Notes under the pieces: generated by a model | What the model saw: the letters and a program-made list of their open reading frames with translations, nothing else | What the model was told of the DNA's origin: nothing | Databases searched by the model: none | Assembly (NCBI GenBank): GCA_003056145.1 | Contig: LSNL01000003.1 | Location: 4,345 to 68,344 of the forward strand | Reading direction: 5' to 3' | Length of the DNA: 64,000 nucleotides | Origin: Parcubacteria group bacterium M10-OD1-1 | GTDB lineage: Bacteria > Patescibacteriota > Minisyncoccia > Moranbacterales > UBA2206 | Translations under genes and position numbers: made by a program | In this document: in pieces, positions 1,135-39,447 of the stretch | Position numbering within the stretch: position 1 is the stretch's first letter | How the letters are laid out: every line of letters begins with the position of its first letter

Positions 1135-2094
1135 TTAAATAATTTTCCAACCATCTTTAATCGGGGCAATTTTTCCTTGAATTTCAAAACCACTAGCTAG
1201 CTTGTGTCCACCTCCACCAAATTGAGCAGCAATTTTAGAAACATCTACTCCCTTATATTCTTCACTGCGAAGGCTACCTTTAATAATGCCATCTTTTCTT
1301 TCAGAAAGAATTAAAGAGAACTTTGTTCCTGGAACAGTATTAAGAATTCCAGCGACTTGAGCAATATCTTCGGTTCTAGCTTCGCATTCTTCTAAATCTT
1401 TTTCAGTTAATACAGAGATAATCATTCCGTTTTCTGGGTTGATTTTAGCTTTTTCAAAAGCTTTTCCCCAAAGTTTTAAGGTAGAAATATTTTTATTAGA
1501 AAAAGTGGTTTCTACTATTTTAGCTAAGGGAGCTCCCTTTTTCATTAAAATAGAAGCAATCTCCATTACTCTAGGGGTTGTATTGGAATGTTGGAACATT
1601 CCAGTGTCAGAGAGAATTCCTAATAGTAAAAATTTAGCTATAGTGTGGTTAATTTCAATATTATTGGTAGAGAAAAAATTATAAATAATTTCACAAACAG
1701 AAGAGTAAGAAGGATCAATGATGTTAATATCTCCTTGGATAGTGATGTCTGGATGGTGATCAATTAAAGCAATAACTTGTTTTTCATTGAAGTTATCTTT
1801 AATTTTCTGAAAACCTCTCTCGACACTATCACAAGCAATAATTAATTTATAGTCAGCAAAATTTATTTGTTCGGGCGATTTAAATTGAATGTTAGAAAGA
1901 GATTTTAAATAATTTGGGAAAGGATCAAAACAGACGATAGTAACAATTTTATTAAGTTTTTTGGCGTACTCATAAAGAGCTAAAACGGAGCCGACAGTAT
2001 CTCCGTCTGGGCGAGAGTGAGCGAAAAGAAGTAAGCTATCAGTTTCTTTGATAGCAAAATTTAAAGTATTAAATTCTTGGGTAAATTTTTCCAT
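1135..2094 (-). CDS. nrnA: DHH-family phosphoesterase, NrnA-like bifunctional oligoribonuclease/pAp phosphatase
   Basis: 319 aa. It has the DHH motif (IDHHPD), a C-terminal GGGH (DHHA1) motif, and an HSRPDGD N-terminal motif. Confidence 0.6.
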   Translation of the reverse strand: MEKFTQEFNTLNFAIKETDSLLLFAHSRPDGDTVGSVLALYEYAKKLNKIVTIVCFDPFPNYLKSLSNIQFKSPEQINFADYKLIIACDSVERGFQKIKDNFNEKQVIALIDHHPDITIQGDINIIDPSYSSVCEIIYNFFSTNNIEINHTIAKFLLLGILSDTGMFQHSNTTPRVMEIASILMKKGAPLAKIVETTFSNKNISTLKLWGKAFEKAKINPENGMIISVLTEKDLEECEARTEDIAQVAGILNTVPGTKFSLILSERKDGIIKGSLRSEEYKGVDVSKIAAQFGGGGHKLASGFEIQGKIAPIKDGWKII

Positions 2095-2149
2095 TTTTTT
2101 AAAACTAAAATAAAATCAGTTTTTCAAGAGCGATTTTTGTCGCTTAAAA

Positions 2150-2479
2150 TTATATTTCTTTTAAAAGTTTTTCAATCTTATCAGCTTCTATTTCAGTCAT
2201 ATCAATTTTAAATTCAACCTTTGGTAGTGGTTTCATATATAATTTTTTGTTTAGTTTTCCTTGAATTTTAGAAATTTCTTTTTGCAAGGTCTTAAGGACA
2301 TAATTAATGTCTGCTTCTGGAAAGACGCTAACAAATATACGAGTGTATCGTAAATCGGGAGTAGTGTCAACCTTAGCAATAGTTACAAAAACACCTTCTT
2401 TTAAAGAAAGGTCTTGAGTTAAAATATCATTAATGTTTTTTTTAATAACTTGATTGATCTTTTCAATTCGTTGAGACAT
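2150..2479 (-). CDS. rbfA: ribosome-binding factor A
   Basis: 109 aa basic protein immediately downstream of infB on the same strand, which is the conserved infB-rbfA arrangement. The sequence is RbfA-like. Confidence 0.65.
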   Translation of the reverse strand: MSQRIEKINQVIKKNINDILTQDLSLKEGVFVTIAKVDTTPDLRYTRIFVSVFPEADINYVLKTLQKEISKIQGKLNKKLYMKPLPKVEFKIDMTEIEADKIEKLLKEI

Positions 2480-2515
2480 CGTTAAGCAGTAGCTAATTAG
2501 TTAGTTGTTTAAATA

Positions 2516-4294
2516 TCACAAAATATTTTTTTTAACTTCTTCTTGATAACACAAGATAGTGTCACCAGTTTTAATTTTAGTTTTTCCAATAAAAGTTATG
2601 CCACATTCTTTTCCTGTTTGACATTCGTCAACATCAACTTTATTTTCTTGAAGATTTCCCATTTTGCCTTTGCCAATACTTTTGTCAGCGCGAAAAACTT
2701 CCAAAAGAGAATTATTAACTAACTTGCCAGAAACAATTTTTCCACCGACAATCATATCTTCTTTCCCATTTTTAAAAATGGCTAAAATTGTTAATTTACC
2801 AAAATCAGTTCGCTCAATCACTGGAGGTAATAAATCAGTTAATTTTTCTTTAATATTATCAATTAGTTCGTAAATAATAGAATAATTTTTAATTTCAACT
2901 TCAGCGGATTCTGCCATTCGTTTTGCCACCGAAGTAGCATCAACACTAAAACCATAAATAGTGGCATTAGAGCTACTAGCTAAGCGAACATCAGATTCAG
3001 TAATATTACCGACACCTACACTAATATATTCAATAGCTACTTCTTCAGATTTTATTTCAGCTAAAATTTGTTGGATAGCTTCTAGAGAACCTTGAACATC
3101 AGATTTTAAAATTATATTTAATTTCTTAATCTTTTCATCAGCGATAGTTTTCATAATTTTCTGAGCACTAAAAGATTCTTGCTCCAGAGAGTTTTTAAAT
3201 TTACTGGAATTCAATTTAGATTTTCCACCAGAACGCTCTACGACTGATTGTAAAATATCGTTAGAGTTAGGAGTGCTTTGAAGTCCGATTATATTGACTG
3301 GAGTTGAAGGTCCAGCTTCAGTAATTCTTTGACCTCTAAAATCTTCAATTCGCCTTACTCTTCCTATTGTAGAGCCAGCGATAATATCTTGACCTTCTTT
3401 TAAAGTTCCTGTTTTAACTAGAATGGTAGCTACTGGTCCTTTTTGAGGGTCTAAATTAGACTCTAAAACAATTCCAATGGGTTCTCGAGAATAATTAGCC
3501 TTATAATCTTCTACTTCTGCCGTTAAAAGAATATTTTCTAAAAGTCCATCAATACCAATATTTTGTTTAGCACTAATTTTAGAGCTTAAAACATCACCAC
3601 CCCATTCTTCTAAAAGAATTCCTTTATCTGCGAGTTCTTGTTTGACTTTTTGCACATTAACACCAACCTTATCTATTTTATTGATAGCTACGACAGTAGG
3701 GATTTTTTTTGCTAAAAGATATTCAATTACTTCACTTGTTTGAGGTCTAACTCCATCATCAGCAGCTACTACTAGAACAGCAATATCAGCCAAGCTAACA
3801 CCTCGTTCTCGCATAGCACTAAAAGCTTCGTGACCAGGCGTATCTACAAAAGTAATAAGCTTACCTTTTTTCTTAACTTGATAAGCGCTGATATGTTGAG
3901 TAATTCCTCCGGATTCTTTACCTGCCACGTTAGATTTTCTAATGGCATCTAAAAGAGTAGTCTTGCCATGATCAACATGTCCAAGAATAGTGACTACTGG
4001 AGGGCGACTTCTTAGATGGTCTCCTGAATCATGTTCTTTTTTTAATAACTCATTAAGTTTTTCTAAAGTCATTTCTCCACTAGCTTCTAAAATTTCTTCG
4101 GAAACTTCAAAACCTAAATCTTGAGCAATAATAGAAGCTGTTTCAAAATCAATTTTTTCATTAATACTAGCTAAAATGCCATTTTTCATTAACTCAGTGA
4201 TGACAATATTAATAGGCAAGCCTAAAAGTTCGCCAAATTTTTTAACGGTGACTGAAGAAGGTAAATTAATTTTTTTTGTGTTTTTTTCGGGCAT
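2516..4294 (-). CDS. infB: translation initiation factor IF-2
   Basis: 592 aa. GTPase motifs [17 protein letters not shown] and NKID, with a C-terminal IF-2 beta-barrel region. Confidence 0.9.
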   Translation of the reverse strand: MPEKNTKKINLPSSVTVKKFGELLGLPINIVITELMKNGILASINEKIDFETASIIAQDLGFEVSEEILEASGEMTLEKLNELLKKEHDSGDHLRSRPPVVTILGHVDHGKTTLLDAIRKSNVAGKESGGITQHISAYQVKKKGKLITFVDTPGHEAFSAMRERGVSLADIAVLVVAADDGVRPQTSEVIEYLLAKKIPTVVAINKIDKVGVNVQKVKQELADKGILLEEWGGDVLSSKISAKQNIGIDGLLENILLTAEVEDYKANYSREPIGIVLESNLDPQKGPVATILVKTGTLKEGQDIIAGSTIGRVRRIEDFRGQRITEAGPSTPVNIIGLQSTPNSNDILQSVVERSGGKSKLNSSKFKNSLEQESFSAQKIMKTIADEKIKKLNIILKSDVQGSLEAIQQILAEIKSEEVAIEYISVGVGNITESDVRLASSSNATIYGFSVDATSVAKRMAESAEVEIKNYSIIYELIDNIKEKLTDLLPPVIERTDFGKLTILAIFKNGKEDMIVGGKIVSGKLVNNSLLEVFRADKSIGKGKMGNLQENKVDVDECQTGKECGITFIGKTKIKTGDTILCYQEEVKKNIL

Positions 4295-4346
4295 AATTTT
4301 TTTAAATACTTAATAAATAATAAAGGAAGTGAGGAAAGAAAATTGT

Positions 4347-4859
4347 TTAGCTAGTTTTATTGGTAGCAATGGCTTTTTTAATGGCTTCTTTTTCTTCTTC
4401 TGTTAATGGATGTTTTTCTGATTGACCATTGATAATCTCCTTGGAATAAATTCTTGCTCCTTCTCTAGTGAAAAGAGAAGAAAGTGTTATTCCATCATTT
4501 TTGCCATTTAGTAGAGCGATTGAGAAGCTTTGGTTACCTCCTACATCCTTAAAAGGATTAAATCTTACTTGTCCAATTTTATGAAAACTTTTAAAAGCTA
4601 AATTATTGATTTGATTGGAAATATTATATAATTCTTGAATATCTTTATCTAATAATTGAAGAGACTTCGCTTGACTTAATAAAAGTTCTTCTAAGTTTTT
4701 AACTTTTTTTCCAGCAAATAAAATTGTCTTCTCTTTTTTAATAATTTGAAACTGAAGATAAAAAAATATATTCCAAGCTAAAAGTATTAAAAACAGAATT
4801 ATAAAAAAAACTAAAATTATTAGTAGATTATTTTGAATTAAGTTCTCCAAAGAAATCAT
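4347..4859 (-). CDS. hypothetical membrane-anchored protein (DUF4446-like)
   Basis: 170 aa. N-terminal transmembrane helix, coiled-coil middle and conserved C-terminal region. The family call is from memory and not verified. Confidence 0.4.
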   Translation of the reverse strand: MISLENLIQNNLLIILVFFIILFLILLAWNIFFYLQFQIIKKEKTILFAGKKVKNLEELLLSQAKSLQLLDKDIQELYNISNQINNLAFKSFHKIGQVRFNPFKDVGGNQSFSIALLNGKNDGITLSSLFTREGARIYSKEIINGQSEKHPLTEEEKEAIKKAIATNKTS

Positions 4860-5171
4860 AGTATTTACTAGCTTAATTTAGATATAAGACTAATTTTAGG
4901 CTAGCATTTATATTTCCTTATGTAAAGCTAAAAGAATTATAATTTGATTAATAATTAAATTTATAAATTCAGAATATTTAAACTACTATTTAAGGGTTGC
5001 ACTAATGCTTTATGCAAGTCAAATTCAAAAGAGTAAGCTATGTACAGAAGAATAGGGCATACAAATGATAAATAAAAGTCTGTCTTACGTTTAAGACGGG
5101 CTTTTATTATTGTGGGCGGTGTCGCCTGCTATCTACTTGACAGATATGAATAAATATGCTAGGATGTACTG

Positions 5172-5335
5172 AATAACAAATAAGTTATTTTTAAAACAAA
5201 CAAATAAATAAATTCTTTGAGGAGAGAGTTACAAACAACGAAAGCTTTATAGCGGTTGTTGTTTAAAGAAAACAGTTAAATGTTTTTCTCTCTTCAGGGA
5301 AGAAAGCATTTAACTGTTTTTTTTTATTTTAAAAA
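5172..5335 (+). ncRNA. candidate small RNA with sigma70-like promoter and intrinsic terminator
   Basis: TTGACA (5137-5142), 17 nt, TAGGAT (5160-5165). Perfect 12-bp terminator stem aacagttaaatg/catttaactgtt (5271-5282 / 5307-5318) followed by T-run 5319-5335. No ORF lies between them. Confidence 0.4.
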
Positions 5336-5439
5336 TATGAAAGACAGATTTTGTTGAAAGAATGATGCAGATGAAATGTGCTTGTTGACACAACTTAAAA
5401 TGATTAAAAGTTGTTAATCCAAGTTTTTATCTTCATCAT

Positions 5440-6640
5440 TCTCTCAATAAAGAGGAGAGAGAAGCTGTTCTTTATATCGAAATAAAATGCTGAAAATATA
5501 TACAAGACCTGCAAGCCTTGTCACTGTGTTGGATAGGTCGCCTTTCGACGGAAACCGATTGCCAATGGCACATTTTACAAATCGTTTTCGTAAGGAAATC
5601 GACTGGGAGTGAAGACTTGAACTATCTTCGCTTTCAGAAATTTCCTTATGAGCGCCTTGTTGTTTAACTCGCTGTGAGTACAACAAGACAATCTAGAGGA
5701 AAATGCTCTTTGAAAAAAAACAAAATCATCATAGGAAGCTATCACGATGGTTTTGTAAACAAAATTGGTACTTGGCAGATAGTCTGTTTGGTTACCGAAA
5801 AAATCAGGGCTAACAAATGCCCCCTTGCCGACATTTTCATGGATGTCGTGATAGCCGAGGTTTCCTAAGGAGGAAATATCATGAATCAAAGAAATACTGG
5901 GAAGGAAGTAGTGTCCTTCCTCTGGAAGGAAGAAGGACTTGATGCGATTTTTTCCGGTGTGTCGTTTAACGACACACCGGACGGCAACGTTTGCACCTTT
6001 CTTTTTAGAAAGCAAGGTGTGAACGACGTACCGATATATTATCGGTACGAAATATTTGAACGACGCGACAGGCGTCGTTCAAAAGGACTGATTTTGACAT
6101 TACTCTTTACGAGTAATGTCAGGTCTCGGGTTGAATGCGTTTCCTTTCTAAAATTTTTAGAAAGGAATGGCCTACTCATCAGAAGGGCTGATGGCCCTGC
6201 TGATGAGTACTATGCCGACCCAAGGTTTATCACCTGTCCGCGCTTTGTGCGGATAAGTGATAAAATGTCTTTGCATTCAGAATTGTTGACCCTGACAAAT
6301 GGGGAAACAATTCTAGTAGAAATCTGGGCTCACTACCCAGAATACGAAGATGAAAATGAAGGAGACTTCCGTATAAAAAACATATGCTGGTTCCCAAAGG
6401 GGCACCATAGTTTTGATACGGAGGAAAATCCTGTAATATTCGCAGGTTTCCTGCGAATATGCCAAAACGGTAATACCGTCTTTGTAGACGGTATTTATTT
6501 CAATAACCGTGGAGGGCGCCACGGTATAATCGAAGAAGCAATTGACACACCAACGGCTACCGAGTAACCCTCGGCTAGTCGACAAACGTCGAGAGGTCGA
6601 CACTAAACAAACCCCCGAGCGACGGTAAGACGCGTTCATG
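5440..6640 (+). ncRNA. hairpin-dense tract of unknown function, candidate large structured RNA or hairpin array. The strand is uncertain; plus is suggested by the downstream plus-strand terminator.
   Basis: At least 25 local inverted repeats, many perfect 9-13 bp with 3-7 nt loops. Examples are 5955-5981 (11 bp), 6027-6049 (10 bp), 6057-6081 (10 bp), 6095-6121 (11 bp), 6141-6167 (12-13 bp), 6436-6460 (11 bp), 5656-5690 (8 bp) and 5832-5851 (6 bp). GC is higher than the flanks. The chance expectation for perfect 9+ bp hairpins in about 1 kb is far below one. Confidence 0.45.
5881..6567 (+). CDS. doubtful ORF (228 aa) overlapping the hairpin-dense tract; probably not a real protein gene
   Basis: Long ORF with an apparent SD aaggagg, but that SD is itself the hairpin tttcct-aagg-aggaaa. 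The ORF is saturated with perfect hairpins, its composition is rich in F and R, and overlapping ORFs occur on both strands, consistent with stop-codon depletion in GC-richer DNA. Confidence 0.2.
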   Translation: MNQRNTGKEVVSFLWKEEGLDAIFSGVSFNDTPDGNVCTFLFRKQGVNDVPIYYRYEIFERRDRRRSKGLILTLLFTSNVRSRVECVSFLKFLERNGLLIRRADGPADEYYADPRFITCPRFVRISDKMSLHSELLTLTNGETILVEIWAHYPEYEDENEGDFRIKNICWFPKGHHSFDTEENPVIFAGFLRICQNGNTVFVDGIYFNNRGGRHGIIEEAIDTPTATE

Positions 6641-6694
6641 AAATAAAATTATCTTGGTGTGAGTCCACCTAAAAACTCACTGCAGAAAGTACTA

Positions 6695-6739
6695 GGGGAT
6701 GAGCTTTCTGTAAGTTCAAGTTCAATCATCCCCTTTTTT
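6695..6739 (+). terminator. intrinsic terminator-like hairpin
   Basis: Stem ggggatga (6695-6702) / tcatcccc (6726-6733) with a 23-nt loop, followed by tttttt (6734-6739). Confidence 0.4.
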
Positions 6740-6999
6740 CCGAAATCATCAGTTTGTTAAAAATTGGTGGTTTCAGAGAAAAGATGCTCTTTGAAAAAAA
6801 TCTACAATACCGCAAATTGGTTGTGAATATTTGAATGTGGGATTGTTTAATTGACAACTAATTTGCAGTATTGTAGAAAAAATCCAAAGCCGGCAGGGTG
6901 TCGGTGGAGGGTAAATATTAATTTGTCTGATGCAATAATGCTGAGGACAACGGCGATTTTTCGCCCCCTAACTCCGGGGCTCGGAGTGGAGGAAGTAAG

Positions 7000-7644
7000 A
7001 TGTCCAATCAAGTGATAACTTTTGATAAAGTTGTGTCTGAGGTGGTTGCCAGCAAGGCAATTAAAAGAAATAAATATAACATCTGCCGCACCTGGCATGG
7101 ATGGATATCGAAAGACGTCCTACATATTACTAGTAGCTCCGGGGCTCGGCGGCGGAAAATTTGGCATTTCCCTATTATAAGGAATGCTGGAAAGGAGATG
7201 TTTTTTAAAAACACGACGGTAACTGCTGATTGCTGGACAGTTATTCCGGCAAAACAAGAAAAAGATCCTTATGGGAGGATTTTGAGACAGTGTAAACAAT
7301 CAAAAAAATTTCTCCACAGACATCAGCCTGGAGAAGTTGTCTATCTCAAAGGGAGATGGGCATATCTTCACTGTCATGTCCCGGGAGAGTCATCGTTTTA
7401 TGTTTCGTTCGATTCGGATGAGACGATCTTCGAAGGGCCCCTGATAAATGTTCCTGGGGGGCATTTTCAATATCAGGATTGGGAAGTGACGCTGTCCAAG
7501 TCCACTTGGGCAGTTGTCAGAAAGGCGCATGCCGATTCAAACGGTCGCGTGCGTAACTTTATCGAGGCTCTCCATATTTGGGGAGAGCCGGATATAGAAG
7601 AGGTTGCCTCCGCTGTGAGGAGAGGAACATTTGGGAGGAGTTAA
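7000..7644 (+). CDS. hypothetical protein (214 aa), uncertain, within the GC-rich insert
   Basis: ATG preceded by ggaggaag SD at -7 and a hairpin actccg-gggct-cggagt. Fewer perfect hairpins than the upstream tract, and a terminator-like hairpin downstream. Composition is W/H-rich and random-like, and I recognise no family. Confidence 0.3.
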   Translation: MSNQVITFDKVVSEVVASKAIKRNKYNICRTWHGWISKDVLHITSSSGARRRKIWHFPIIRNAGKEMFFKNTTVTADCWTVIPAKQEKDPYGRILRQCKQSKKFLHRHQPGEVVYLKGRWAYLHCHVPGESSFYVSFDSDETIFEGPLINVPGGHFQYQDWEVTLSKSTWAVVRKAHADSNGRVRNFIEALHIWGEPDIEEVASAVRRGTFGRS

Positions 7645-7659
7645 AAAGCGGACTTTTGT

Positions 7660-7700
7660 GCAGGATTGATGATTAGTTCTCATTCAATCCTGCCTATTAT
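7660..7700 (+). terminator. terminator-like hairpin downstream of ORF 7000-7644
   Basis: Stem gcaggattga (7660-7669) / tcaatcctgc (7684-7693). The downstream U-tract is weak. Confidence 0.3.
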
Positions 7701-8227
7701 TGGGATTTTAATTTCTTAATTTAAATTGAAATTCCATAATGGGAAATTGTTTATATAAATATAAACAATACATACAAAATATCTCGGTAATGTGAGGTGT
7801 TTTGAGTGAAATGAGATTTGATTTGTAAAACTTTTCGTCTTTGTAATTTTACGAGGACAAGAAACTCTCTCCTCGAGATTTTATGGATTAAATTTCTTAC
7901 TAAACATTTACTCAAACATCTCATATTGTTGAGATAAAAACATCACCTTTAACACAATAGCTTTGGCTTAGTGGTAATGTAGTCTATCGTTGTTGAAGGT
8001 TTTTTTTGTTTCTATGGAATCGGGAATTATTACAGAAGCAGTGACTGCAAAAACAGTGCGCGCTTTATATATAAAGAAAGTTCAAATATCGTTCAAAAGG
8101 TATCGCTATCTTTGAATTTTTGCGTTTTTGGTAGAATTTTGAGTGGGGCTTTGCTCCGCGCAAAGTGCGACCGTGTCTCGTATACACAGGAAGAAATGAA
8201 AATCCCCCAAAACGCTGAAATTGTAAT

Positions 8228-8317
8228 TGGCGGAGGCGGGAGGATTCGAACCTCCGATACCGGTTAAGGTATAACGCTTTTCGAGAGCGCCCTATTCAAC
8301 CGCTCTAGCACGCCTCC
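8228..8317 (-). tRNA. tRNA-Ser (anticodon CGA), type II with long variable arm
   Basis: The reverse complement reads GGAGGCG...CTAG/D-loop...anticodon stem GCGCT/AGCGT with loop CTCGAAA (anticodon CGA)...long variable arm...GGAGG-TTCGAAT-CCTCC...CGCCTCC-G-CCA. The CCA is encoded. Confidence 0.8.
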
Positions 8318-8467
8318 TTTTCTCTCTTTTTAGTATCCTTGATTTTTATCTTTTTGGCAATAAGAAAAAGATGAAATCTAATTACAAATAAAAATAATTT
8401 TTAAGTTGTTGCTTTTAGAAATTTGTTGTAAAATATAAAAGTAAAATAAAAACAAATAAAAACAACG

Positions 8468-9049
8468 ATGTTAGAACAGGAGGAAAAATCAATTCATCAA
8501 TCTTTAGGAGTAGCTAACTCTTTTAAGTTTTTAAGTCCTCAAAAAATAGTTGATCAAATTGAGGTTAATCCAGGAATGAAAATAGCTCATTTTGGTTGCT
8601 CTACTGGTTACTTTACTTTTCTATTAGCTCAAAGAGTTGGAGGTAGTGGTCAGGTTTATGCTCTAGATATTATATCTTCTAAACTAGAAATTTTAAAGAG
8701 CCAGATTAAATTACAAGGAATTAGAAACATTGCAATAAAAAGAGTGAGTTTAGAAAATAAGAATGGTTCTGGCTTGGAGAATGAAAGTATGGATTGGGTA
8801 ATAATGGTTAATATGTTATATCAAAATAATCAAAAGAATAAAATCATCAAAGAAGCAGAGAGAGTCTTAAAACCTGGTGGAAAAATTCTTTTAATAGACT
8901 GGGAAACAGGAGACGATAGAATTGGACCAAAAAAACTTTCACGAATTTCTAAAGGAGATTTAATTAAAATAGTCAGAAGATACAGTTTAGGAATTAAAAA
9001 AGAAATTGAAGTTGGAAATTTTCATTTTGGACTAATACTAGCCAAATAA
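8468..9049 (+). CDS. class I SAM-dependent methyltransferase
   Basis: 193 aa. Motif I-like GCSTGYFT and VYALDI, and the post-I region KPGGKILLIDW, which is the methyltransferase type 11 fold. Confidence 0.65.
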   Translation: MLEQEEKSIHQSLGVANSFKFLSPQKIVDQIEVNPGMKIAHFGCSTGYFTFLLAQRVGGSGQVYALDIISSKLEILKSQIKLQGIRNIAIKRVSLENKNGSGLENESMDWVIMVNMLYQNNQKNKIIKEAERVLKPGGKILLIDWETGDDRIGPKKLSRISKGDLIKIVRRYSLGIKKEIEVGNFHFGLILAK

Positions 9050-9054
9050 AATAT

Positions 9055-10482
9055 ATGACATTAAAAACAAAAAAAAGTAAAATATTTTTCGCTACAGTTT
9101 TTATTTTTGGATTGATTATTTTATCTGGCTGTGGTTTCAAACAAAAAACAGATCATCAATATAATTTAAGTTTAGAAATCTGGGGTCCTTTTGATTACGG
9201 GGATGCTTTAAGAAAAGTTTTTAATAGTTATAAAAAAATAAATCCTAATATTTCTAGTCTTGAGTATAAAAGAATTCCAATTAATACTTATCAAAAAGAA
9301 TTAACAGAAGCTTTAGCAGCAGGACAGGGTCCAGATATTTTCTTTATTCGTAATGACTGGGTACCGAGTTTTGCAGATAAAATAGTTCCTGTTAAAGAAA
9401 TTCCAGGGGTTATTAGTGAGAAAAAGTTTAGAGCTAATTTTATAGATGTAGTGGCTAATGATTTTTTAGTTAAAGGAAATATCTATGCGATGCCTCTTTC
9501 GGTAAATACTTTGGGTTTATATTATAATAAAGATCTTTTTAATCAAGCTGGCATAGTGGCACCACCAAAAACTTGGGATGAATTTTCTGAGGATGTCAAA
9601 AAACTTACTAAAATTAATGCTTTTGGGGAAATAATTCAATCAGGAGCAGCTATGGGGACAGCTTATAATATCAATCGTTCTACGGACATATTAAATCTCT
9701 TGATGTTGCAAAATCAAACTAAAATGATTGATCCACGAGGACAAGTGCTTTTTCAAAAATCAATTTCTGAAAATGGAAAAAGTATTTTTCCTGGAGAAAA
9801 CGCGCTAGCTTTCTATACTCAATTCGCTAACACTAGTTCTCCAGAATATACTTGGAATTCTCAGCTGCATGATTCTATTGATGCTTTTTCTGAAGGAACA
9901 GTTGCGATGATGTTAAATTATCCTTGGAATGTTAAGGTTATAAAAGAGAAGGCACCGAAGCTTAATTTTGCCATTGCACCAGTTCCTCAAATAAAAGATA
10001 AGCCAAAAGTTAATTTTGCTAATTATTGGGGACTAGCGGTTTCTAAAAATAAGACTCCTCAAAGTAATCCATATGGACAATCTAAAAAAGCAGTGGTAAT
10101 TAGTAGTAATACTCGGTTAAAAGAAGCTTGGACTTTTTTAACATACTTAACTACTAAGCCAGATGGAACTTTTAATAATAAGGCTAGTACAAAAGTTGGG
10201 CAAGTTACAGAAGCTAATTTTGATCCTGCTAAAAGTTGTTTAACTCAAACCGGTGAACCAGCTGCTAGGCGTGATTTAATTAAAGAGCAAAAAGATAATC
10301 CGACTATTGGTGTTTTTGCAACAGATAATTTAATTGCTCAAAGCTGGATAGAGGTTGATCCTTCTTCTATTGAGTCAATTTTTGCTGAAATGATTGATCA
10401 AGTTAATAAAGGACAGGCAACAGTGGCTGGAGCTATTAAAACAGCCGCTCAAAGAGTTCAAATATTATCCAATAATAATTAA
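9055..10482 (+). CDS. ABC transporter extracellular solute-binding lipoprotein (family 1, sugar-type)
   Basis: 475 aa. Signal peptide plus lipobox LSGC and an SBP_bac_1-like sequence. No permease or ATPase is adjacent. Confidence 0.65.
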   Translation: MTLKTKKSKIFFATVFIFGLIILSGCGFKQKTDHQYNLSLEIWGPFDYGDALRKVFNSYKKINPNISSLEYKRIPINTYQKELTEALAAGQGPDIFFIRNDWVPSFADKIVPVKEIPGVISEKKFRANFIDVVANDFLVKGNIYAMPLSVNTLGLYYNKDLFNQAGIVAPPKTWDEFSEDVKKLTKINAFGEIIQSGAAMGTAYNINRSTDILNLLMLQNQTKMIDPRGQVLFQKSISENGKSIFPGENALAFYTQFANTSSPEYTWNSQLHDSIDAFSEGTVAMMLNYPWNVKVIKEKAPKLNFAIAPVPQIKDKPKVNFANYWGLAVSKNKTPQSNPYGQSKKAVVISSNTRLKEAWTFLTYLTTKPDGTFNNKASTKVGQVTEANFDPAKSCLTQTGEPAARRDLIKEQKDNPTIGVFATDNLIAQSWIEVDPSSIESIFAEMIDQVNKGQATVAGAIKTAAQRVQILSNNN

Positions 10483-10486
10483 AAAA

Positions 10487-11410
10487 ATGAAAAACCTTAT
10501 TAAAAAAGTTCCTCTAATCTTTAGCACATTATTAATCAGTAGCCTCTTTCTTTTTTTTGGAGTAGCTAACTCGCAAGCTTCTACTGCTGAATGTACTGCT
10601 CAAGGAGGTATCTGCGCTACAGTAGGAGGAAGTGGTTGTTTAAGTGGTAGCCCTATTGCAAATATAACTTGTTCTGGTGGGGTAACTTGTTGTACGAATG
10701 TAACTCCTAAGAGTTCTACTATTTGTTGTCAGGTCTCTGGACAAGGTTGCGGAGAAATTAACGGAAGCACTTGTCCAACAGGAATGAATTTTTTAGGTAC
10801 TGGTTCTTGCTCTAGCTTTTCTGCCTGCCAAATTAAGACTTCAACAGGGTCTTCTGCTAATACTAATAATGGGAATTCAATTACTTTTTCTAATCCGATT
10901 GGATTTACTACTTTTGCTGGCTTATTGAACTCCATTCTAAATCATATGATGGGTATTATTGCTACTATTGCAATAGTCTTTATGATTCTGGGAGGTATAA
11001 TGTATATGATGTCTGGTGGCAATGAAGGAATGGTAACTAAAGCTAAAAAAACTTGGACTGGAGCTATTATTGGTCTAGCGATTGCGTTGGCTTCGCCAAC
11101 TTTTTTAAAGGAAATTCAAAAAATTCTTAATGGAGGAGGAACAGGAGGGAGCGCTCAAGCTTGGGTAAGTAAAGCGTTAACACTTAAAGAAATTGCTATT
11201 AATGTTGCTAACCTATTGTTGTCAATTTTAGGTATTCTTGGTATAATTGCCTTAATAATTGGAGGTGGAATGTATTTAACTGCCTATGGTGATGAAAGAA
11301 AAATTGATACTGGAAAAAAGATAATCACCTTTGCGATTATCGGTATTGTCGTAGCTCTCTCAGCAGTTATTATCACCAAACAAGTTTCCGTTATTTTAGG
11401 AGCAAATTAA
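10487..11410 (+). CDS. secreted Cys-rich protein with duplicated TrbC/VirB2-like pilin-family C-terminal domain
   Basis: Start chosen at the internal ATG 10487 (MKNLIKKVPLIF..., signal peptide). About 20 Cys in the N-domain, then two copies of the motif hydrophobic helix-GG-MY(L/M)-G-(D/N)E-K-hydrophobic helix, as in the three downstream paralogs. Confidence 0.5.
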   Translation: MKNLIKKVPLIFSTLLISSLFLFFGVANSQASTAECTAQGGICATVGGSGCLSGSPIANITCSGGVTCCTNVTPKSSTICCQVSGQGCGEINGSTCPTGMNFLGTGSCSSFSACQIKTSTGSSANTNNGNSITFSNPIGFTTFAGLLNSILNHMMGIIATIAIVFMILGGIMYMMSGGNEGMVTKAKKTWTGAIIGLAIALASPTFLKEIQKILNGGGTGGSAQAWVSKALTLKEIAINVANLLLSILGILGIIALIIGGGMYLTAYGDERKIDTGKKIITFAIIGIVVALSAVIITKQVSVILGAN

Positions 11411-11478
11411 ATTAGAACAAAAGAAAGTTTAATAGGATAGTTAAAAAATAAATATACAAAATAGAAAGGAGGTGTTAT

Positions 11479-11832
11479 ATGAAAAATAAAATTAGAATAA
11501 TGATTTTCTCAGTAGCCTCAACTACCTTGACTTTTCCAGCTTTGGCTTTAGCTCAATTTAGCGCTCCTGCCGGAACTGGACTACCTGTTAATTCAGTTTA
11601 TGATATTATTTCAGGAATAATGTTTTGGTTGTTGGCAATAGTGGGGATAGTGGGTGTTATTGGTTTTGCTATTGCAGGAATCCTCTACTTAACAGCAGCG
11701 GGAGATGATTCTAGGATTCAACAGGCCAAAAGTGCAATGCTCTATTCTATTATTGGAGTAATTGTAGCTTTATCTGGTTTAGTAGCAATCCATTTTGCTA
11801 GCGGGTTATTAGGTGGTCAAAGGCAATTCTAA
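11479..11832 (+). CDS. TrbC/VirB2-like pilin-family small membrane protein
   Basis: 117 aa. Signal peptide and conserved core WLLAIVGIVGVIGFAIAGILYLTAAGDDSRIQQAKSAMLYSIIGVIVAL, which is two transmembrane helices around an AGD motif. An RBS aaaggagg lies upstream. Confidence 0.5.
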   Translation: MKNKIRIMIFSVASTTLTFPALALAQFSAPAGTGLPVNSVYDIISGIMFWLLAIVGIVGVIGFAIAGILYLTAAGDDSRIQQAKSAMLYSIIGVIVALSGLVAIHFASGLLGGQRQF

Positions 11833-11952
11833 TTAAAGAATTCTTTGAAATTTCAAAACAAAAACAGATTGTTTTAATAGTCTGTTTTTGTTTTTTGTTT
11901 TTTTATTGTATAATATAAGCGAGGTATTATTAAATAAATTTAAAATAAAAAA

Positions 11953-12348
11953 ATGAAATATTTGAAATTAGGAATTCAAAAAATAAAGCAAGGGAGATAT
12001 TTATTAGGTAGTTTTTTTGGACTTAATCTTAATTCTTCTAGTGGAGGTGGAGGGAACGGTAGTGGTTGGAATCCAGGGAGTCTTAGTCAATTCAATCTTC
12101 CTAATGCTTCTATTTATAGTATTATAGAAAATATTTTAAATTGGTTATTGGGTATTTTGGGAATTATTGGAGTAATAGGTTTTGTGATTGCTGGAATTTT
12201 TTATTTAACAGCAGCTGGAGATGAATCTCAAATTACTAAAGCTAAAAGTGCTTTGAAATATTCTATTACGGGTGTCATCGTGGGAATAGCTGGTCTAGTG
12301 ATTATTCAAGCAGTTAACGCAATGCTTAACGGAACTTCTCTTTTTTAA
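11953..12348 (+). CDS. TrbC/VirB2-like pilin-family small membrane protein
   Basis: 131 aa. Gly/Ser-rich N-region and the same conserved C-terminal core (NWLLGILGIIGVIGFVIAGIFYLTAAGDESQITKAKSALKYSITGVIVG). Confidence 0.5.
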   Translation: MKYLKLGIQKIKQGRYLLGSFFGLNLNSSSGGGGNGSGWNPGSLSQFNLPNASIYSIIENILNWLLGILGIIGVIGFVIAGIFYLTAAGDESQITKAKSALKYSITGVIVGIAGLVIIQAVNAMLNGTSLF

Positions 12349-12352
12349 ATTT

Positions 12353-13039
12353 ATGAAAAATCTTACTAAAAAAATTATAAAAAACTTAATTAACTATAAT
12401 AATAAAATATACAAAGTATTTTTTTTTAGTAGTTTTATTCTAGGAGTCAGTCTTTTTTTTGGAATAAATATTTCTCAAGCAGACTATATTTGTTTAAATC
12501 AGAGTAGCGCTTGTAGTGGTAATTGGGCTGATATTAACGCTTGTGGTGTAGGTGTTTGTAGTACAGGAGAAAAATGTTGTTCAATAGCGACAAAAACGAG
12601 CACGAATACAAGTACAAACACAAATTCTTCTACACCTAGCAAAGCAGGTAACACTTGGAAAAATCCAGATAATGCAACTTCCAATTCTAATGCAGTCCCT
12701 ATTTCTTTAGGTAATCAAAATAATAATACTTCAGCTAATAATGTTTCTGGAAGTGGACAACTTAATATTCCAACATTTAATCTTCCTAACCCACAAGGAG
12801 GAATTAAAGAAATTGCTCAAAATCTATTGAATTGGTTGTTGGGTATTTTGGGTATTATAGCGATAATCTCTTTTATTATAACTGGTTTACAATATTTTAT
12901 GGCAGCGGGAGATGAACAAATAGTTCAATCAGCTAAAAAGAACATGACTTATTCTATTTTAGGGATTATTGTGGCTCTCTCAGGCTTTATAATCATTCAA
13001 GCTATCGATGCAGCCTTACGAGCTACATCATTCTTTTAA
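12353..13039 (+). CDS. TrbC/VirB2-like pilin-family protein with Cys-rich and Thr/Asn-rich N-terminal region
   Basis: 228 aa. Signal peptide, Cys cluster (CLNQSSACSGNWADINACGVGVCSTGEKCCS), TSTNTSTNTNSS low-complexity linker, and the same C-terminal pilin-like core. Confidence 0.5.
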   Translation: MKNLTKKIIKNLINYNNKIYKVFFFSSFILGVSLFFGINISQADYICLNQSSACSGNWADINACGVGVCSTGEKCCSIATKTSTNTSTNTNSSTPSKAGNTWKNPDNATSNSNAVPISLGNQNNNTSANNVSGSGQLNIPTFNLPNPQGGIKEIAQNLLNWLLGILGIIAIISFIITGLQYFMAAGDEQIVQSAKKNMTYSILGIIVALSGFIIIQAIDAALRATSFF

Positions 13040-21992: not shown

Positions 21993-22498
21993 CAAAAATA
22001 AAAAAACTCTGGACTGGCTCTGGAGTTTTTTTCTTTCTGTTAGTAGAATGGAGGATTGAATAGATAAATACAAACTAGAAAAGATACAAAAGAATTTTTA
22101 TAGAGAACGCTGATAAATTTGAGTAAGTGGGAATTTGGCATTAGCTAGAACAATGAGATTGAATTTATTGAGGCGAGATGAAACTTTCTTGACACTTAAA
22201 AGGTTGTTTAAGCTTTTGTTATTTTAGAGTAAAAATAATATTTGAAATAAATTATTGTACGAAAAGTAGTAATGGTATTTTATTAAGGGAGATGATGTTA
22301 TAATCTGTATTTAGAATAAAGTTTTAGCTAGAATAAGGTGTAAATATTAAGCTATTCTTTGGGTGAGGTGATAAAAGCTTGACAAGATTTTGTTTATCTG
22401 CTAGGGTGAACTTTAAAGGTATAAAAAAGAAAGTTATTTAACAATCATTGCCTAGGAAGGAGTTTCCTGGGTTAAAAAACTAAAAAAGGAGAGCGGTT

Positions 22499-23347
22499 AT
22501 GAAAAAAGAATTGTTACTGGTGTGTCTGGTGTGTTGTCTAATGGTTTTTCCAAGTCAAAGTTTTGCTGATTCGTCAGGCGTTGGAATCGCTGGCGCTCAG
22601 GCTGTTATTAACGGAGGGGATGTCCAGGTGAATCCTGGGCAAGTTGTGTCTCCAAGTGCGAATGCGAATCTGAGTATCGATTCGCATTCGAAAGTGAGCA
22701 ATCGTAATTTTTTGCAGACGGGATATCCAGCGGCCCCAGCGCCGATGACTTACTTTGGCCCCTGGAAAAAGGGACTACCGTATAATGTAATCCAACTTGC
22801 AGTTGGATCGGTATGGAAGTGGGCAGGAATGAGGAAGGTATCTTCCAGTAGTGCTAAAGCACTGTTAGAAGATATCCAACATCCATTTCCGCCGACGGCA
22901 GAAATAAAAGTTGTCTCCCCTGAGAAAGGGGAGGGAACCTTTGTCGGCAATATTGTTGTCCTAGTTGACAGCAATCAAGCGAGCTTTAACGCTCGCAACA
23001 TAGCTCTAAAAGTAGCCATGAAGGCTGGTGCCGACCAGCTGGAAATCTATTCCAACAATTACATTCAGAAGCCAACTAGCTCTGGTTGGCATTTCGGTTT
23101 TGGCGGTGGTGCCTCGGGCATCATCGGCAATGATAGCACATCAATTGCAGGCTCAGGAGGAACCGGATTTGGATCCTCCAGCCTTCATTTGGCGAGCCTT
23201 CCATTTATTAAGGCCCGTCTTTGGAGGTCAGCTACTGCAGTTGATTTGGCCAGCGTCAGCGAAGACGAAAGCTATGCACCGGCGGTCAAAGCCAAATCTT
23301 CTAATGAGGATTGGCATATAAAAGACTTAAGTAATTTTGACAATTAA
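22499..23347 (+). CDS. secreted protein of unknown function (GC-rich, likely horizontally acquired)
   Basis: 282 aa. Signal peptide MKKELLLVCLVCCLMVFPSQSFA, SD ggagag upstream, and a Gly-rich C-region. Composition contrasts strongly with the flanking AT-rich genes. No family recognised. Confidence 0.5.
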   Translation: MKKELLLVCLVCCLMVFPSQSFADSSGVGIAGAQAVINGGDVQVNPGQVVSPSANANLSIDSHSKVSNRNFLQTGYPAAPAPMTYFGPWKKGLPYNVIQLAVGSVWKWAGMRKVSSSSAKALLEDIQHPFPPTAEIKVVSPEKGEGTFVGNIVVLVDSNQASFNARNIALKVAMKAGADQLEIYSNNYIQKPTSSGWHFGFGGGASGIIGNDSTSIAGSGGTGFGSSSLHLASLPFIKARLWRSATAVDLASVSEDESYAPAVKAKSSNEDWHIKDLSNFDN

Positions 23348-23472
23348 CAAAAAAGGAGGTGATTTTCAGAATTTTCAGTAAGTAACACGAGTAACATAAC
23401 ATTCTCCATTCCTAGTTGGGATGGAGGTAATTATGGGACATTCCCGTGTCCCGAACAAAAAAGGAGAAAGTC

Positions 23473-23901
23473 ATGAAAAAGATGTTATCAAAAATGGCAG
23501 TATCGATGTCAATTATTGCCCTGATTATGGTTGCCATCCCGGCTCTTGCCCAATCAGGAGGAAGTGTGGAGGGAGGTAATTCGTCCTGGCTGTCAGGCTT
23601 TGATAATGGCATTACCCACATCTCGGCCAATCAACGATCCTGGCAACAGACAGTTATCCAGGTACCCGGTCAAACATTTAACGCCGTTTCAAACAGCAAC
23701 ACCGGGTTCCAGCTGAATGCTGCCGATGGCGTAGCCGCCGCCGAAACAACTACAGATATAGGTTTTTACACTAATTCTAGTGGAAACCTGGGAGCCTTTT
23801 CTGATGCCAATGTGGCATCGATCGCTGCAGGTAACGCCATGAGCATTACCTGGGCAGCCTCAAATTCTTCCCTGAGCCAATATGGTGGCGGGGAGCGATA
23901 G
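23473..23901 (+). CDS. secreted protein of unknown function (GC-rich)
   Basis: Start set at ATG 23473 (MKKMLSKMAVSMSIIALIMVAIPALA signal peptide) with SD aaaggag 7 nt upstream. The listed ORF begins at an upstream GTG. A strong terminator follows. Confidence 0.45.
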   Translation: MKKMLSKMAVSMSIIALIMVAIPALAQSGGSVEGGNSSWLSGFDNGITHISANQRSWQQTVIQVPGQTFNAVSNSNTGFQLNAADGVAAAETTTDIGFYTNSSGNLGAFSDANVASIAAGNAMSITWAASNSSLSQYGGGER

Positions 23902-23919
23902 TCTAAAGGTTCTGCTGAT

Positions 23920-23960
23920 GCCACCAAGATATCTAATATCTTGGTGGCATTTTTTTTTAT
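23920..23960 (+). terminator. intrinsic terminator
   Basis: 12-13 bp perfect stem gccaccaagatat / atatcttggtggc with a short loop, followed by a run of 9 T. Confidence 0.7.
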
Positions 23961-24016
23961 TAAATTTTAAGAGTTTTAGAATGGAAGCTAAAGCTCCTTT
24001 ATGATACAATGACAAA

Positions 24017-37683: not shown

Positions 37684-38727
37684 ATGAAAGAATCTAAAAA
37701 AGAGAAAAACATCAATGCGGTTATTGATGAAATTAAAGAAAGGTTTGGCGAGGGAGTAATTATGAAATTAGGTGACATCAAAAAAGTAGATGTTGCTTCA
37801 ATTCCGACTGGATCTATCTCTTTGGATATTGCCTTAGGAATTGGTGGTATTCCTCAAGGGAGAGTAGTAGAAGTTTATGGACCAGAATCCTCTGGGAAGA
37901 CTACGCTAACTCTCCATATTATTGCTAATGCTCAAAAAGCAGGAGGAGTAGCTGCTTTTATTGATGCAGAGCATGCGTTAGATCCAGAATATGCTAAAAA
38001 AATAGGAGTTAATATTGATAATCTTTTAATTTCTCAACCAGATAATGGTGAACAGGCTTTGGATATTGTAGAAACTTTAGTTAATTCAGGAGAAATAAGT
38101 GTTATCGTGATTGACTCAGTAGCCGCCTTAGTACCGAAGGCAGAGATTGAAGGAGATATGGGGGCTCATCATATGGGAACTCAAGCTCGATTAATGTCGC
38201 AAGCTTTAAGGAAATTGACAGCTATTATTGCTAAATCTAATTGTACAGTTATTTTTATCAATCAGATTAGAATGAAAATCGGTGTAGTCTTTGGTAATCC
38301 AGAAACAACAACTGGAGGAAATGCTCTAAAGTTTTATTCTTCGGTGCGAATTGAGGTTCGTCGTTCAGCCCAAATTAAAAAAGCTGATGATATTGTAGGC
38401 AATAGAACTAAAATTAAAATTGTTAAAAACAAAGTAGCTCCACCATTTAAAACAACAGAATTTGATATTATGTATAATGAGGGTATTTCAGCGTCAGGAG
38501 ATATTTTAGACACAGGAGTTAAATATGAGATTATCAACAAGAAAGGAAATTCTTATTCTTTTAACGAAATAAAATTAGGCGTAGGGAGAGAAAAAGCTAA
38601 ACAAACATTAAAAAGTAATTTAGAGATTATGCAAGAAATTTCTAAAAAAATCTATGTTAAATTAGATGAGATAGAAGCGGAAAAAGAAAAAGAAACAGAA
38701 ACAGAAAAAGAAAAAGAGCAAAAGTAG
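37684..38727 (+). CDS. recA: recombinase RecA
   Basis: 347 aa. Walker [10 protein letters not shown] and RecA L1/L2 loop regions. Confidence 0.9.
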
Positions 38728-38952: not shown

Positions 38953-39447
38953 ATGAAGAAATTTACCATGATTTCAGCTATAGTTGTGATGAGTTGTTTT
39001 ATTGGTCTTATGGGTTGCAGGAGATTCACTCAACCAAAGGTCAGCAAGAAAATGGAAAGGGAGATGATCTCTAGCATATACATGGCTCCACCGTTAGTGT
39101 GGGTGGGATTACCTACTTCATGGATGGGGGGAATGGGAGGAGAATACTGTAAAATAGTTGAGCTCAATGCGTTCAGCTATGAAGTAGGGAAATCTCTAAA
39201 AGAAACTAACGGGGGCAAGCTCCCTGAGATGCTGGGCGCGCAATTCGAGAACGCATGGCCAGTAACTGCCCATGCGACTGGGATAGCGGGAGTCCAATGG
39301 CTCCCAAGAGGGGAAGGGAAGTTTAGTTATGTTGGAGGCAACAGTGGGAAACGATGGGTAAAAAAGAAGTTTAGTGGGGAGTGTCAGTTTATGCTGTATC
39401 ATGATATTTATGGCAAATGGAGGCTGGTACGCAACTGGCAGAATTAG
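38953..39447 (+). CDS. lipoprotein of unknown function (GC-rich insert)
   Basis: 164 aa. SD aggaggag, signal peptide plus lipobox LMGC, and GC-rich relative to recA and ndk. Confidence 0.5.
   Translation: MKKFTMISAIVVMSCFIGLMGCRRFTQPKVSKKMEREMISSIYMAPPLVWVGLPTSWMGGMGGEYCKIVELNAFSYEVGKSLKETNGGKLPEMLGAQFENAWPVTAHATGIAGVQWLPRGEGKFSYVGGNSGKRWVKKKFSGECQFMLYHDIYGKWRLVRNWQN

Follow-up and report, generated by a model that had tools for sequence, protein, structure and literature searches.

Among coding RNAs, the genomes of RNA phages and of other RNA viruses are heavily structured, and so is hok, a fold-back mRNA of type I toxin–antitoxin systems. Rickettsia palindromic elements (RPEs) are palindromic selfish DNA inserted in frame in protein-coding genes (PMC1779305; reviewed in PMC10969869), and template switching, which is documented to make and to perfect hairpins, has been found inside coding sequence as well (PMC8794818, PMC8604942). 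Here we describe two neighbouring open reading frames (ORFs) of Parcubacteria group bacterium M10-OD1-1, located on a stretch of 64,000 nucleotides (nt) of contig LSNL01000003.1 (assembly GCA_003056145.1) that we refer to as the window. ORF1 (5881–6567, plus strand, ATG start, 228 amino acids, aa) is a probable orphan gene that is overlaid by 14 stem-loops (5913–6525). ORF2 (7000–7644, plus strand, ATG start, 214 aa) follows it and has a conserved N-terminal domain (∼ 7000–7245). The two look like separate orphan cistrons in a GC-enriched accessory island (40–45% GC, ∼ 5000–8200; the window has ∼ 30%) of an AT-rich, small-genome bacterium. A preliminary description of the locus had posed a choice between real proteins and artefacts of structured DNA. 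For ORF1 this choice fails: statistically, both the open frame and the hairpins are real.

The ORF1/ORF2 locus appears to work most like the coding RNAs with overlapping structure (RNA-virus genomes, hok) and the in-frame palindromic elements (RPEs). As in the former, coding overlaps extensive structure and the ribosome-binding site is sequestered, and a helix predicted to close ORF1 from 5′ to 3′, albeit without covariation support, resembles the fold-back inhibition of hok. ORF1 differs in being a chromosomal gene for a 228-aa, soluble-looking protein rather than an RNA replicon or a small membrane toxin, and no antisense RNA partner was found for it. With RPEs it shares hairpin-forming palindromes that are read through as protein within an ORF, in an AT-rich reduced host. 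RPEs, however, are repeated families of 100–150 bp that are scattered over the genome, whereas ORF1 holds 14 unrelated stem-loops of 20–60 nt in a single ORF; each stem sequence is unique in the window, where no repeated palindrome family was found. The perfect Watson–Crick stems, their arbitrary spacers and the multi-nucleotide differences that cluster in hairpin arms between homologs are all features of template-switch hairpins, but published cases are isolated (rRNA, miRNA, single genes) and ORF1 is far denser (68% of the coding sequence is base-paired, z = −14 against synonymous-codon permutations). ORF1 is best described as an accessory orphan gene that structure overlaps to an unusual degree, and it is a member of no family tested.

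The preliminary description called ORF1 wall-to-wall hairpins, and the counts bear this out. Seven perfect hairpins with stems of 10–14 bp lie within it (5953–5981, 6027–6049, 6055–6083, 6095–6121, 6141–6167, 6436–6460 and 6472–6495), compared with a shuffle mean of 0.007 for stems of at least 10 bp; the whole window contains 15 such hairpins. Local stem-loops with ΔG of −10 kcal/mol or lower number 14 in ORF1, equivalent to 20 per kb versus 2–3 per kb in host genes. Region 5840–6640 has a minimum free energy of −344 kcal/mol, for which dinucleotide shuffles give z = −20; the minus strand is nearly as extreme (z = −19). A folding scan in 150-nt segments found the entire island (∼ 4975–7900) more structured than shuffles and the flanking host DNA not.

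This structure is accounted for neither by the encoded protein nor by its codon usage or the base composition. When synonymous codons were swapped among positions encoding the same amino acid, which keeps both protein and codon usage, ORF1 scored z = −14.4 as a whole, −13.1 in its N-terminal half and −5.9 in its C-terminal half. ORF2 scored −5.1 (conserved N-terminal domain −0.4, remainder −4.5). The gene for the homolog of ORF2 described below (P0002), situated in a related island, gave −11.0 and the 119-aa ORF adjacent to it −6.9, versus −0.7 and +1.1 for the host genes flanking that island. Three further GC-rich orphan ORFs of the window, 22499–23347, 23446–23901 and 38953–39447, gave −7.3, −1.9 and −4.1 respectively, and host genes of the window, scored over their first 600 nt, lay mostly between −2.8 and +1.7. 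By these scores the GC-enriched accessory genes examined here share an excess of structure, with ORF1 at the extreme. Because protein, codon usage and composition leave the structure unexplained, the sequence seems to encode protein and nucleic-acid structure at once. The stems may themselves be the cause of the high GC content, rather than a foreign origin. Among ordinary host genes, recA was the only one below −3 in the scan (−4.2 for its first 600 nt, 37684–38283; −2.2 for the whole gene).

ORF1 is probably a protein-coding orphan gene, because its frame is free of stops and longer than structure-preserving shuffles produce, its codon positions are gene-like, its Shine–Dalgarno (SD) sequence is perfect and the indels of a strain variant are in frame. 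Both ORFs had been credited with SD-like sites and ATG starts, and both sites proved strong; that of ORF1 is AAGGAGG (5867–5873), 7 bases from the ATG at 5881, which is the ideal spacing. The ORF1 frame holds no stop, versus 16 and 18 in the other sense frames. For the shuffles, base pairs were permuted among paired positions and unpaired bases among unpaired ones, and all six frames were scanned. The longest open stretch had a mean of 87 codons and a maximum of 208, such that none of 5000 shuffles reached the 232 codons observed. Guanine makes up 32% of first codon positions and A+T 62% of second positions, as in ORF2 and other genes. A close variant (P0003, on contig L006) has 96% nucleotide identity over 5676–6616 of the window. 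Within ORF1 the only indels between the two are of 6 nt and 3 nt, whereas those in the leader are of 1 nt each. The 15 substitutions in ORF1 comprise seven synonymous and eight non-synonymous changes, none of which makes a stop; read in either of the other sense frames, three of the same 15 would be synonymous. The probability of at least seven synonymous changes is 0.08, which for a single 96% variant is supportive but not decisive.

The composition reported in the preliminary description was accurate (ORF1 is rich in Arg, 8.8%, and Phe, 7.9%; ORF2 contains 3.7% Trp and 4.7% His). That it appears random-like is expected from chains of palindromes in a GC-enriched gene and is no argument against translation. 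The overlapping antisense ORFs of 146 and 108 aa also exist. We reject them as genes, since each antisense frame holds 6–10 stops and the substitution pattern is not coding-like.

Several observations weigh against a translated ORF1 overlaid by selected stem-loops. The substitution evidence amounts to 15 changes and two indels. A full HMMER scan of 1.8 billion representative proteins found no homolog of ORF1 beyond the 96% strain variant, and a word-indexed search of 5.8 billion protein clusters returned only ORF1 itself and one strain variant. The sole other match, P0004 (E = 5.8e-5 over 45 residues, hhalign probability 47%), is a CIA30/CBM11-like repeat protein whose score is summed over four repeats; the resemblance is between the C-terminus of ORF1 (…NGNTVFVDGIYF…) and the last strands of the CIA30/CBM11-like repeat. 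Being short, summed over repeats and of doubtful hhalign probability, it is a hint at most and is not counted as homology. AlphaFold2, run on two-sequence alignments, gave no confident fold: the predicted local distance difference test scores (pLDDT) of 31.6 for ORF1 and 36.2 for ORF2 are uninformative, and neither support nor refute folding. The stems of ORF1 are almost purely Watson–Crick and strand-symmetric (21 versus 18 G–U pairs between strands, none in the seven perfect stems), and two of them are palindromes with a single central base, so that a DNA-level or purely mutational origin has to be kept in view. In L006 the predicted long-range G–C pairs 5887/6273 and 5891/6269 have lost both partners: each of the four bases is an A there, which leaves mismatches instead of compensated pairs. 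Two such A–A mismatches among 15 substitutions are unlikely to be a coincidence. Since the long-range helices carry these uncompensated changes, the part of the model in which a helix closes the transcript is weak. A density of perfect stems such as this, inside a statistically solid ORF, would surprise specialists, and it is set against a tiny family and translation evidence from one close variant.

In the comparison with L006, four of the six substitutions that fall in the local stems keep or improve pairing, and no compensatory pairs were found in ORF1 between these two sequences. The hairpin-dense core (5932–6251) has one substitution in 320 nt versus 14 in the remaining 367 nt of ORF1, a disparity that points to nucleotide-level constraint or to very recent exchange.

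ORF2, which the preliminary description had considered the more plausible gene, is indeed the better supported by virtue of protein-level conservation. Its SD sequence, GGAGG, lies within GGAGGAAGTAAGATG at 6988–7002. Besides ORF2, whose start is annotated further downstream in the record, the search of 5.8 billion protein clusters returned a single homolog, P0002 (212 aa), which is encoded on five overlapping short contigs (L001–L005, 3370 nt when merged). The two proteins are 54% identical over the first 87 residues and have the runs TW(H/Y)GW(I/V)SKD(V/I)LHITS and RRKIWHF in common. Over the 80 aligned N-terminal codons there are 25, 18 and 41 differences at codon positions 1, 2 and 3, and 18 of the 45 identical residues are spelled with different codons. 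This concentration of differences at third positions, together with the different codons used for identical residues, identifies ORF2 as a protein-coding gene and indicates purifying selection at the protein level in its N-terminal domain only. The C-terminal 130 residues of ORF2 cannot be aligned with P0002, and the sequence encoding them has excess structure. To judge from this alignment the family has two members, with a conserved N-terminal domain of 80 residues and a C-terminal part that has been replaced. A profile search with the alignment of the N-terminal domains found nothing.

The related island that encodes P0002 (1000–2010 of the merged contigs) is likewise GC-rich in an AT-rich context (58% GC at third codon positions of the P0002 gene). 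It sits between a gene for a 167-aa protein and a holA-like gene, near a tRNA. Perfect hairpins occur inside its ORFs (e.g. an 11-bp stem at 1059–1085), and strong hairpins follow at 2052–2080 and 2146–2179.

There is moderate evidence for constraint at the RNA level in the leader and N-terminal domain of the ORF2 family. A long, imperfect hairpin (6801–6877, plus strand; 28-nt arms, 89% complementary) opens the leader, and the segment 6775–6924 folds with z = −9.3. The conserved leader proper (6966–6992, plus strand) contains the hairpin CTCCGG-GGCTC-GGAG and an outer CCT/GGA helix that runs into the GGAGG of the SD sequence. The 30 nt before the ATG, comprising this small hairpin and the SD sequence, are nearly identical in the P0002 locus, which is the only homologous locus, and all nine pairs of leader helix 2 are invariant there. 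Against column shuffles, the consensus fold of leader plus N-terminal domain scores z = −5.4 in the sense and −3.9 in the antisense direction (−4.8 and −2.8 when the coding sequence is folded alone). It includes three double-sided (compensatory) and 10 one-sided (wobble) changes, in a test that uses two sequences of ∼ 71% identity and a structure derived from the same alignment. The hairpin noticed earlier downstream of ORF2 was found at 7660–7693 (plus strand, GCAGGATTGA...TCAATCCTGC); it is terminator-like, with a 10-bp stem (7660–7669/7684–7693).

A duplicated CCGGGGCTCGG box had also been pointed out. Both copies exist, at 6974–6984 and 7139–7149, although the first had been placed one base off, and they extend to 16 nt with one mismatch. 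By our estimate an exact 11-mer repeat within 3.5 kb is about at chance level. The first copy is part of the hairpin conserved in the leader; the second amounts to the codons of SSGARRR, for which P0002 uses different bases. We find no support for the box as a functional repeat. The repeat that matters, absent from the preliminary description, is the 17-nt ATGCTCTTTGAAAAAAA (5703 and 6784), which bounds a presence/absence cassette.

This cassette (5720–6800, plus strand, 1081 bp) comprises a leader hairpin, the SD sequence, ORF1, a terminator-like hairpin and the right copy of the repeat. The perfect 17-nt copies (5703–5719 and 6784–6800, plus strand) lie at a distance of exactly 1081 nt, and after each of them come a hairpin, a leader, an SD sequence and an ORF; the similarity reaches ∼ 10 nt further upstream of the left copy. 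The leader hairpin (5720–5756, plus strand, ACAAAATCATC...GATGGTTTTGT) has ΔG of −13.4 kcal/mol and on the minus strand reads as a hairpin followed by a T-run. The terminator-like hairpin (6694–6739, plus strand, AGGGGATGA...TCATCCCCT) has ΔG of −16 kcal/mol and is followed by six T. Contig L016 (GCA_003056095.1) has flanks 99.6–99.8% identical to the window and an identical ORF2, and lacks exactly 5720–6800: its positions 1–1768 correspond to 3951–5719 of the window and 1744–4612 to 6775–9645, with the empty-site junction inside the repeat, of which one 17-mer copy is left. Because L016 is without precisely this segment, the ORF1 unit is a discrete, dispensable module. The more distant strain L006 has the cassette at the same left junction. 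As the site is the same in L006 and the similarity of the repeats extends imperfectly past 17 nt, the empty site of the near-identical strain most likely arose when recombination between the repeats deleted the cassette, rather than the window having received a fresh insertion.

The account that we favour, with confidence about evenly divided for and against, is that of two orphan genes, the first a dispensable cassette, whose coding sequence is overlaid by stem-loops that act on the mRNA. We suggest that a transcript as compact as that of ORF1 would be a poor substrate for RNases that attack single strands, such as RNase Y, whose gene (identified by its Pfam domains) is present in a neighbouring contig of the genome. 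Translation initiation would be throttled and slow, both SD sites being partly paired in hairpins; that of ORF1 is largely held in the hairpin TTTCCT-AAGG-AGGAAA (5861–5876, plus strand), which is identical in L006. A 9-bp helix may in addition join the 5′ leader (5852–5860, plus strand, TAGCCGAGG) to CCTCGGCTA (6569–6577, plus strand), just past the ORF1 stop codon; both arms are predicted and lack covariation. Template switching from one arm of an inverted repeat to the other during replication plausibly gave rise to the perfect Watson–Crick stems or maintained their perfection.

The competitor that survives best, although we consider it unlikely, needs template switching alone. The hairpins would then be a functionless mutational by-product, and ORF1 a young and weakly constrained orphan gene, possibly of de novo origin, built or homogenised by repeated short inverted duplications and quasipalindrome correction. 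The perfection and strand symmetry of the stems, the lack of G–U pairs in the seven perfect ones and the two 1-nt spacers are as such an origin would have them, as are the lack of homologs, the odd composition, the low AlphaFold confidence and the fact that a near-identical strain dispenses with ORF1. In the homologous hairpin of ORF2 and P0002 the differences are concentrated in the arms, where, for instance, TT versus CC makes the difference between an 11-bp perfect stem and one containing wobbles, and template switching is on record in coding sequence (see above). Yet 14 stems within 687 nt of one open frame would require many independent events that all escaped selection against disruption, and it is the hairpin-dense core that is most conserved between strains. 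Unrelated GC-rich orphan genes of this genome, and the related island, have excess structure as well; host genes, replicated by the same machinery, mostly do not. The consensus structure of the ORF2 family is also stronger on the sense strand. Template switching that makes stems and selection that keeps them are in any case compatible ideas.

We regard it as more doubtful still that ∼ 5720–6740 is a large structured non-coding or cis-acting RNA in which the 228-codon ORF is not meaningfully translated. The extreme folding score of the region, its GC enrichment in an AT-rich genome, the predicted closing helix, the want of protein homologs, an uninformative AlphaFold model and a conserved core that takes in synonymous sites would all suit an RNA. 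In extending over several hundred strongly structured, GC-rich nt of an AT-rich genome, next to a tRNA gene, it also resembles GOLLD, ROOL, OLE and raiA. Those RNAs, however, have complex multistem junctions, whereas the ORF1 region consists of simple perfect hairpins, has a significant SD-led ORF and matches no covariance model. The Rfam comparison took in GOLLD, ROOL, OLE, HEARO, raiA, group I/II introns and riboswitches; at the gathering threshold it found only three tRNAs in the window, and a permissive scan of 4900–8300 gave only sub-threshold chance hits (e.g. to miRNA models). Large functional RNAs typically contain bulges, internal loops, G–U pairs and recurrent loop motifs, none of which is seen in the ORF1 stems. 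The open frame that no structure-preserving shuffle equals, the SD spacing, the codon-position composition and the in-frame indels of the variant likewise argue for translation.

If the account of two orphan genes with mRNA-acting stem-loops is true, ORF1 is among the most extreme cellular coding sequences that also encode nucleic-acid structure, and ‘ORF or structured RNA’ is not a safe either/or for GC-based annotation of AT-rich genomes. With its filled, empty and 96%-variant alleles, the locus would be a compact, naturally occurring test case for the co-evolution of mRNA structure and protein and for gene-building by template switching. That further GC-rich orphan genes of this genome have excess structure too is a hint that accessory genes in these organisms share a broader property, as yet unexplained. 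Were the stems a mere mutational by-product, they would still be a useful warning for gene finders and for non-coding RNA searches. More speculatively, and with low confidence, these genes may represent a class of accessory genes in small AT-rich genomes such as those resembling the candidate phyla radiation (CPR), with ‘dual-coded’ mRNAs whose stem-loop chains are constrained at least as much as the protein. ORF1 would then be the extreme and the ORF2 family, 22499–23347 and 38953–39447 milder examples. Such transcripts would have a function of their own, e.g. extreme stability towards RNase Y, regulated unfolding or partner recognition; alternatively, the class would show one way in which template-switch palindromes become assembled into new genes.

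A third explanation concerns the cassette only, and we think it improbable: that it is an actively mobile element whose insertion at ATGCTCTTTGAAAAAAA produced either a duplication of 17 bp or attL/attR cores. In its favour, the presence/absence polymorphism is precise, with a perfect 17-bp direct repeat at its bounds, identity between strains is lower for the cassette (96%) than for the flanks of L016 (99.7%), and contigs of several assemblies repeatedly end near the cassette borders. There are, however, no terminal inverted repeats (alignment score 14 versus a shuffle mean of 15), and neither the cassette nor the genes called between ∼ 5.9 kb upstream of ORF1 and ∼ 4.9 kb downstream of ORF2 include a recombinase or a transposase. 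A second copy of the cassette was found neither in the window nor in the viral collection. The similarity of the repeats continues imperfectly past 17 nt, as it would for two old copies of one site, and the cassette of L006 at that site makes loss more parsimonious. Integron gene cassettes are similar in that they are ∼ 1-kb, single-ORF modules in tandem, with a shared short start next to an imperfect palindrome and with one module present or absent between strains. They differ in that here each module has its own leader and SD sequence, attC cores are missing from the borders (the integron cores RYYYAAC/GTTRRRY occur only at 5662, 5964 and 6130) and no integrase is found nearby, among the called genes of contigs L007 and L011. 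An integron, insertion sequence or miniature inverted-repeat transposable element was rejected for want of core sites, terminal inverted repeats and a recombinase; the direct repeat is 17 bp long, and the window has a single copy of the cassette. A tRNA-targeted integrative element was rejected also, as the 3′ end of the tRNA-Ser gene is not repeated at the far side of the island and no integrase is nearby.

The least probable proposal, which we regard as very doubtful, makes ORF2 and P0002 small polymorphic toxins or effectors with an N-terminal delivery domain, a variable C-terminal toxin and the 119-aa protein as immunity protein: the conserved N-terminus, the unalignable C-terminus, the accessory-island location and the 119-aa ORF that overlaps the end of the P0002 gene in L001–L005 would be in keeping with it, but no family of toxins, immunity proteins, defence systems or phages is matched by these proteins or by the 119-aa ORF, we saw neither a signal peptide nor a known domain linked to secretion, and in the window there is no match to the 119-aa protein and no partner ORF downstream of ORF2.

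The statement that neither ORF has recognisable homologs stands as far as known families are concerned. There is no significant Pfam, PHROG, NCBIfam, PADLOC or PDB sequence match to ORF1 or ORF2, and blastn/tblastn comparison with 50,697 phage records gave none either. No related loci were found in GTDB representative genomes or in IMG/VR, while JGI metagenomes yielded only contigs that were already known. No paper was found under the sample and assembly accessions.

Contigs of several independent assemblies (Logan, NCBI) begin or end at 5608, 6616, 6757 and ∼ 7710. These breaks are off the 17-nt repeat and leave ORF1 and ORF2 on separate contigs of ∼ 1 kb; they could reflect strain variation or poor coverage of hairpin-rich DNA. 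Right after the ORF1 stop, near several of the contig ends, three copies of GTCGAC are found within 24 nt (6582–6605, GTCGACAAACGTCGAGAGGTCGAC).

The island is flanked by a DUF4446 gene (4347–4859, minus strand) and by tRNA-Ser(CGA) (8228–8317, minus strand). Neighbouring genes encode IF-2, RbfA, a DHH phosphoesterase, paralogs resembling pilins of the type IV secretion system (T4SS) and RNase Y, a gene content that looks like that of Patescibacteria/CPR genomes. At the left end of the island, 5060–5340 is a candidate small transcription unit. It includes a hairpin with T-runs on either side (5071–5108), a promoter-like site (5137–5165, TTGACA-17-TAGGAT, with TG in front) and a hairpin with 29-nt arms followed by nine T (5265–5324). 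The unit is also present in the empty-site genome (L016); it may represent a small RNA or else an attenuator that precedes ORF1.

Elsewhere in the window, a second GC-rich island (22400–24000, 43–51% GC) lies downstream of tRNA-Pro and tRNA-Gly. Its two orphan ORFs, 22499–23347 (282 aa) and 23446–23901 (151 aa), have N-termini like signal peptides and match no family; the first contains a 12-bp perfect hairpin at 22659–22690, and contigs from three samples stop shortly past it. The third GC-rich (46%) orphan ORF, 38953–39447 (164 aa), has a lipoprotein-like N-terminus and no family match, and is preceded by a near-consensus promoter (TTGACA-17-TATACT) at ∼ 38824. The T4SS-pilin-like paralogs form a run at 10394–13039, in which segments of ∼ 160 nt are repeated with 71–73% identity (11625–11783, 12141–12299 and 12819–12916).

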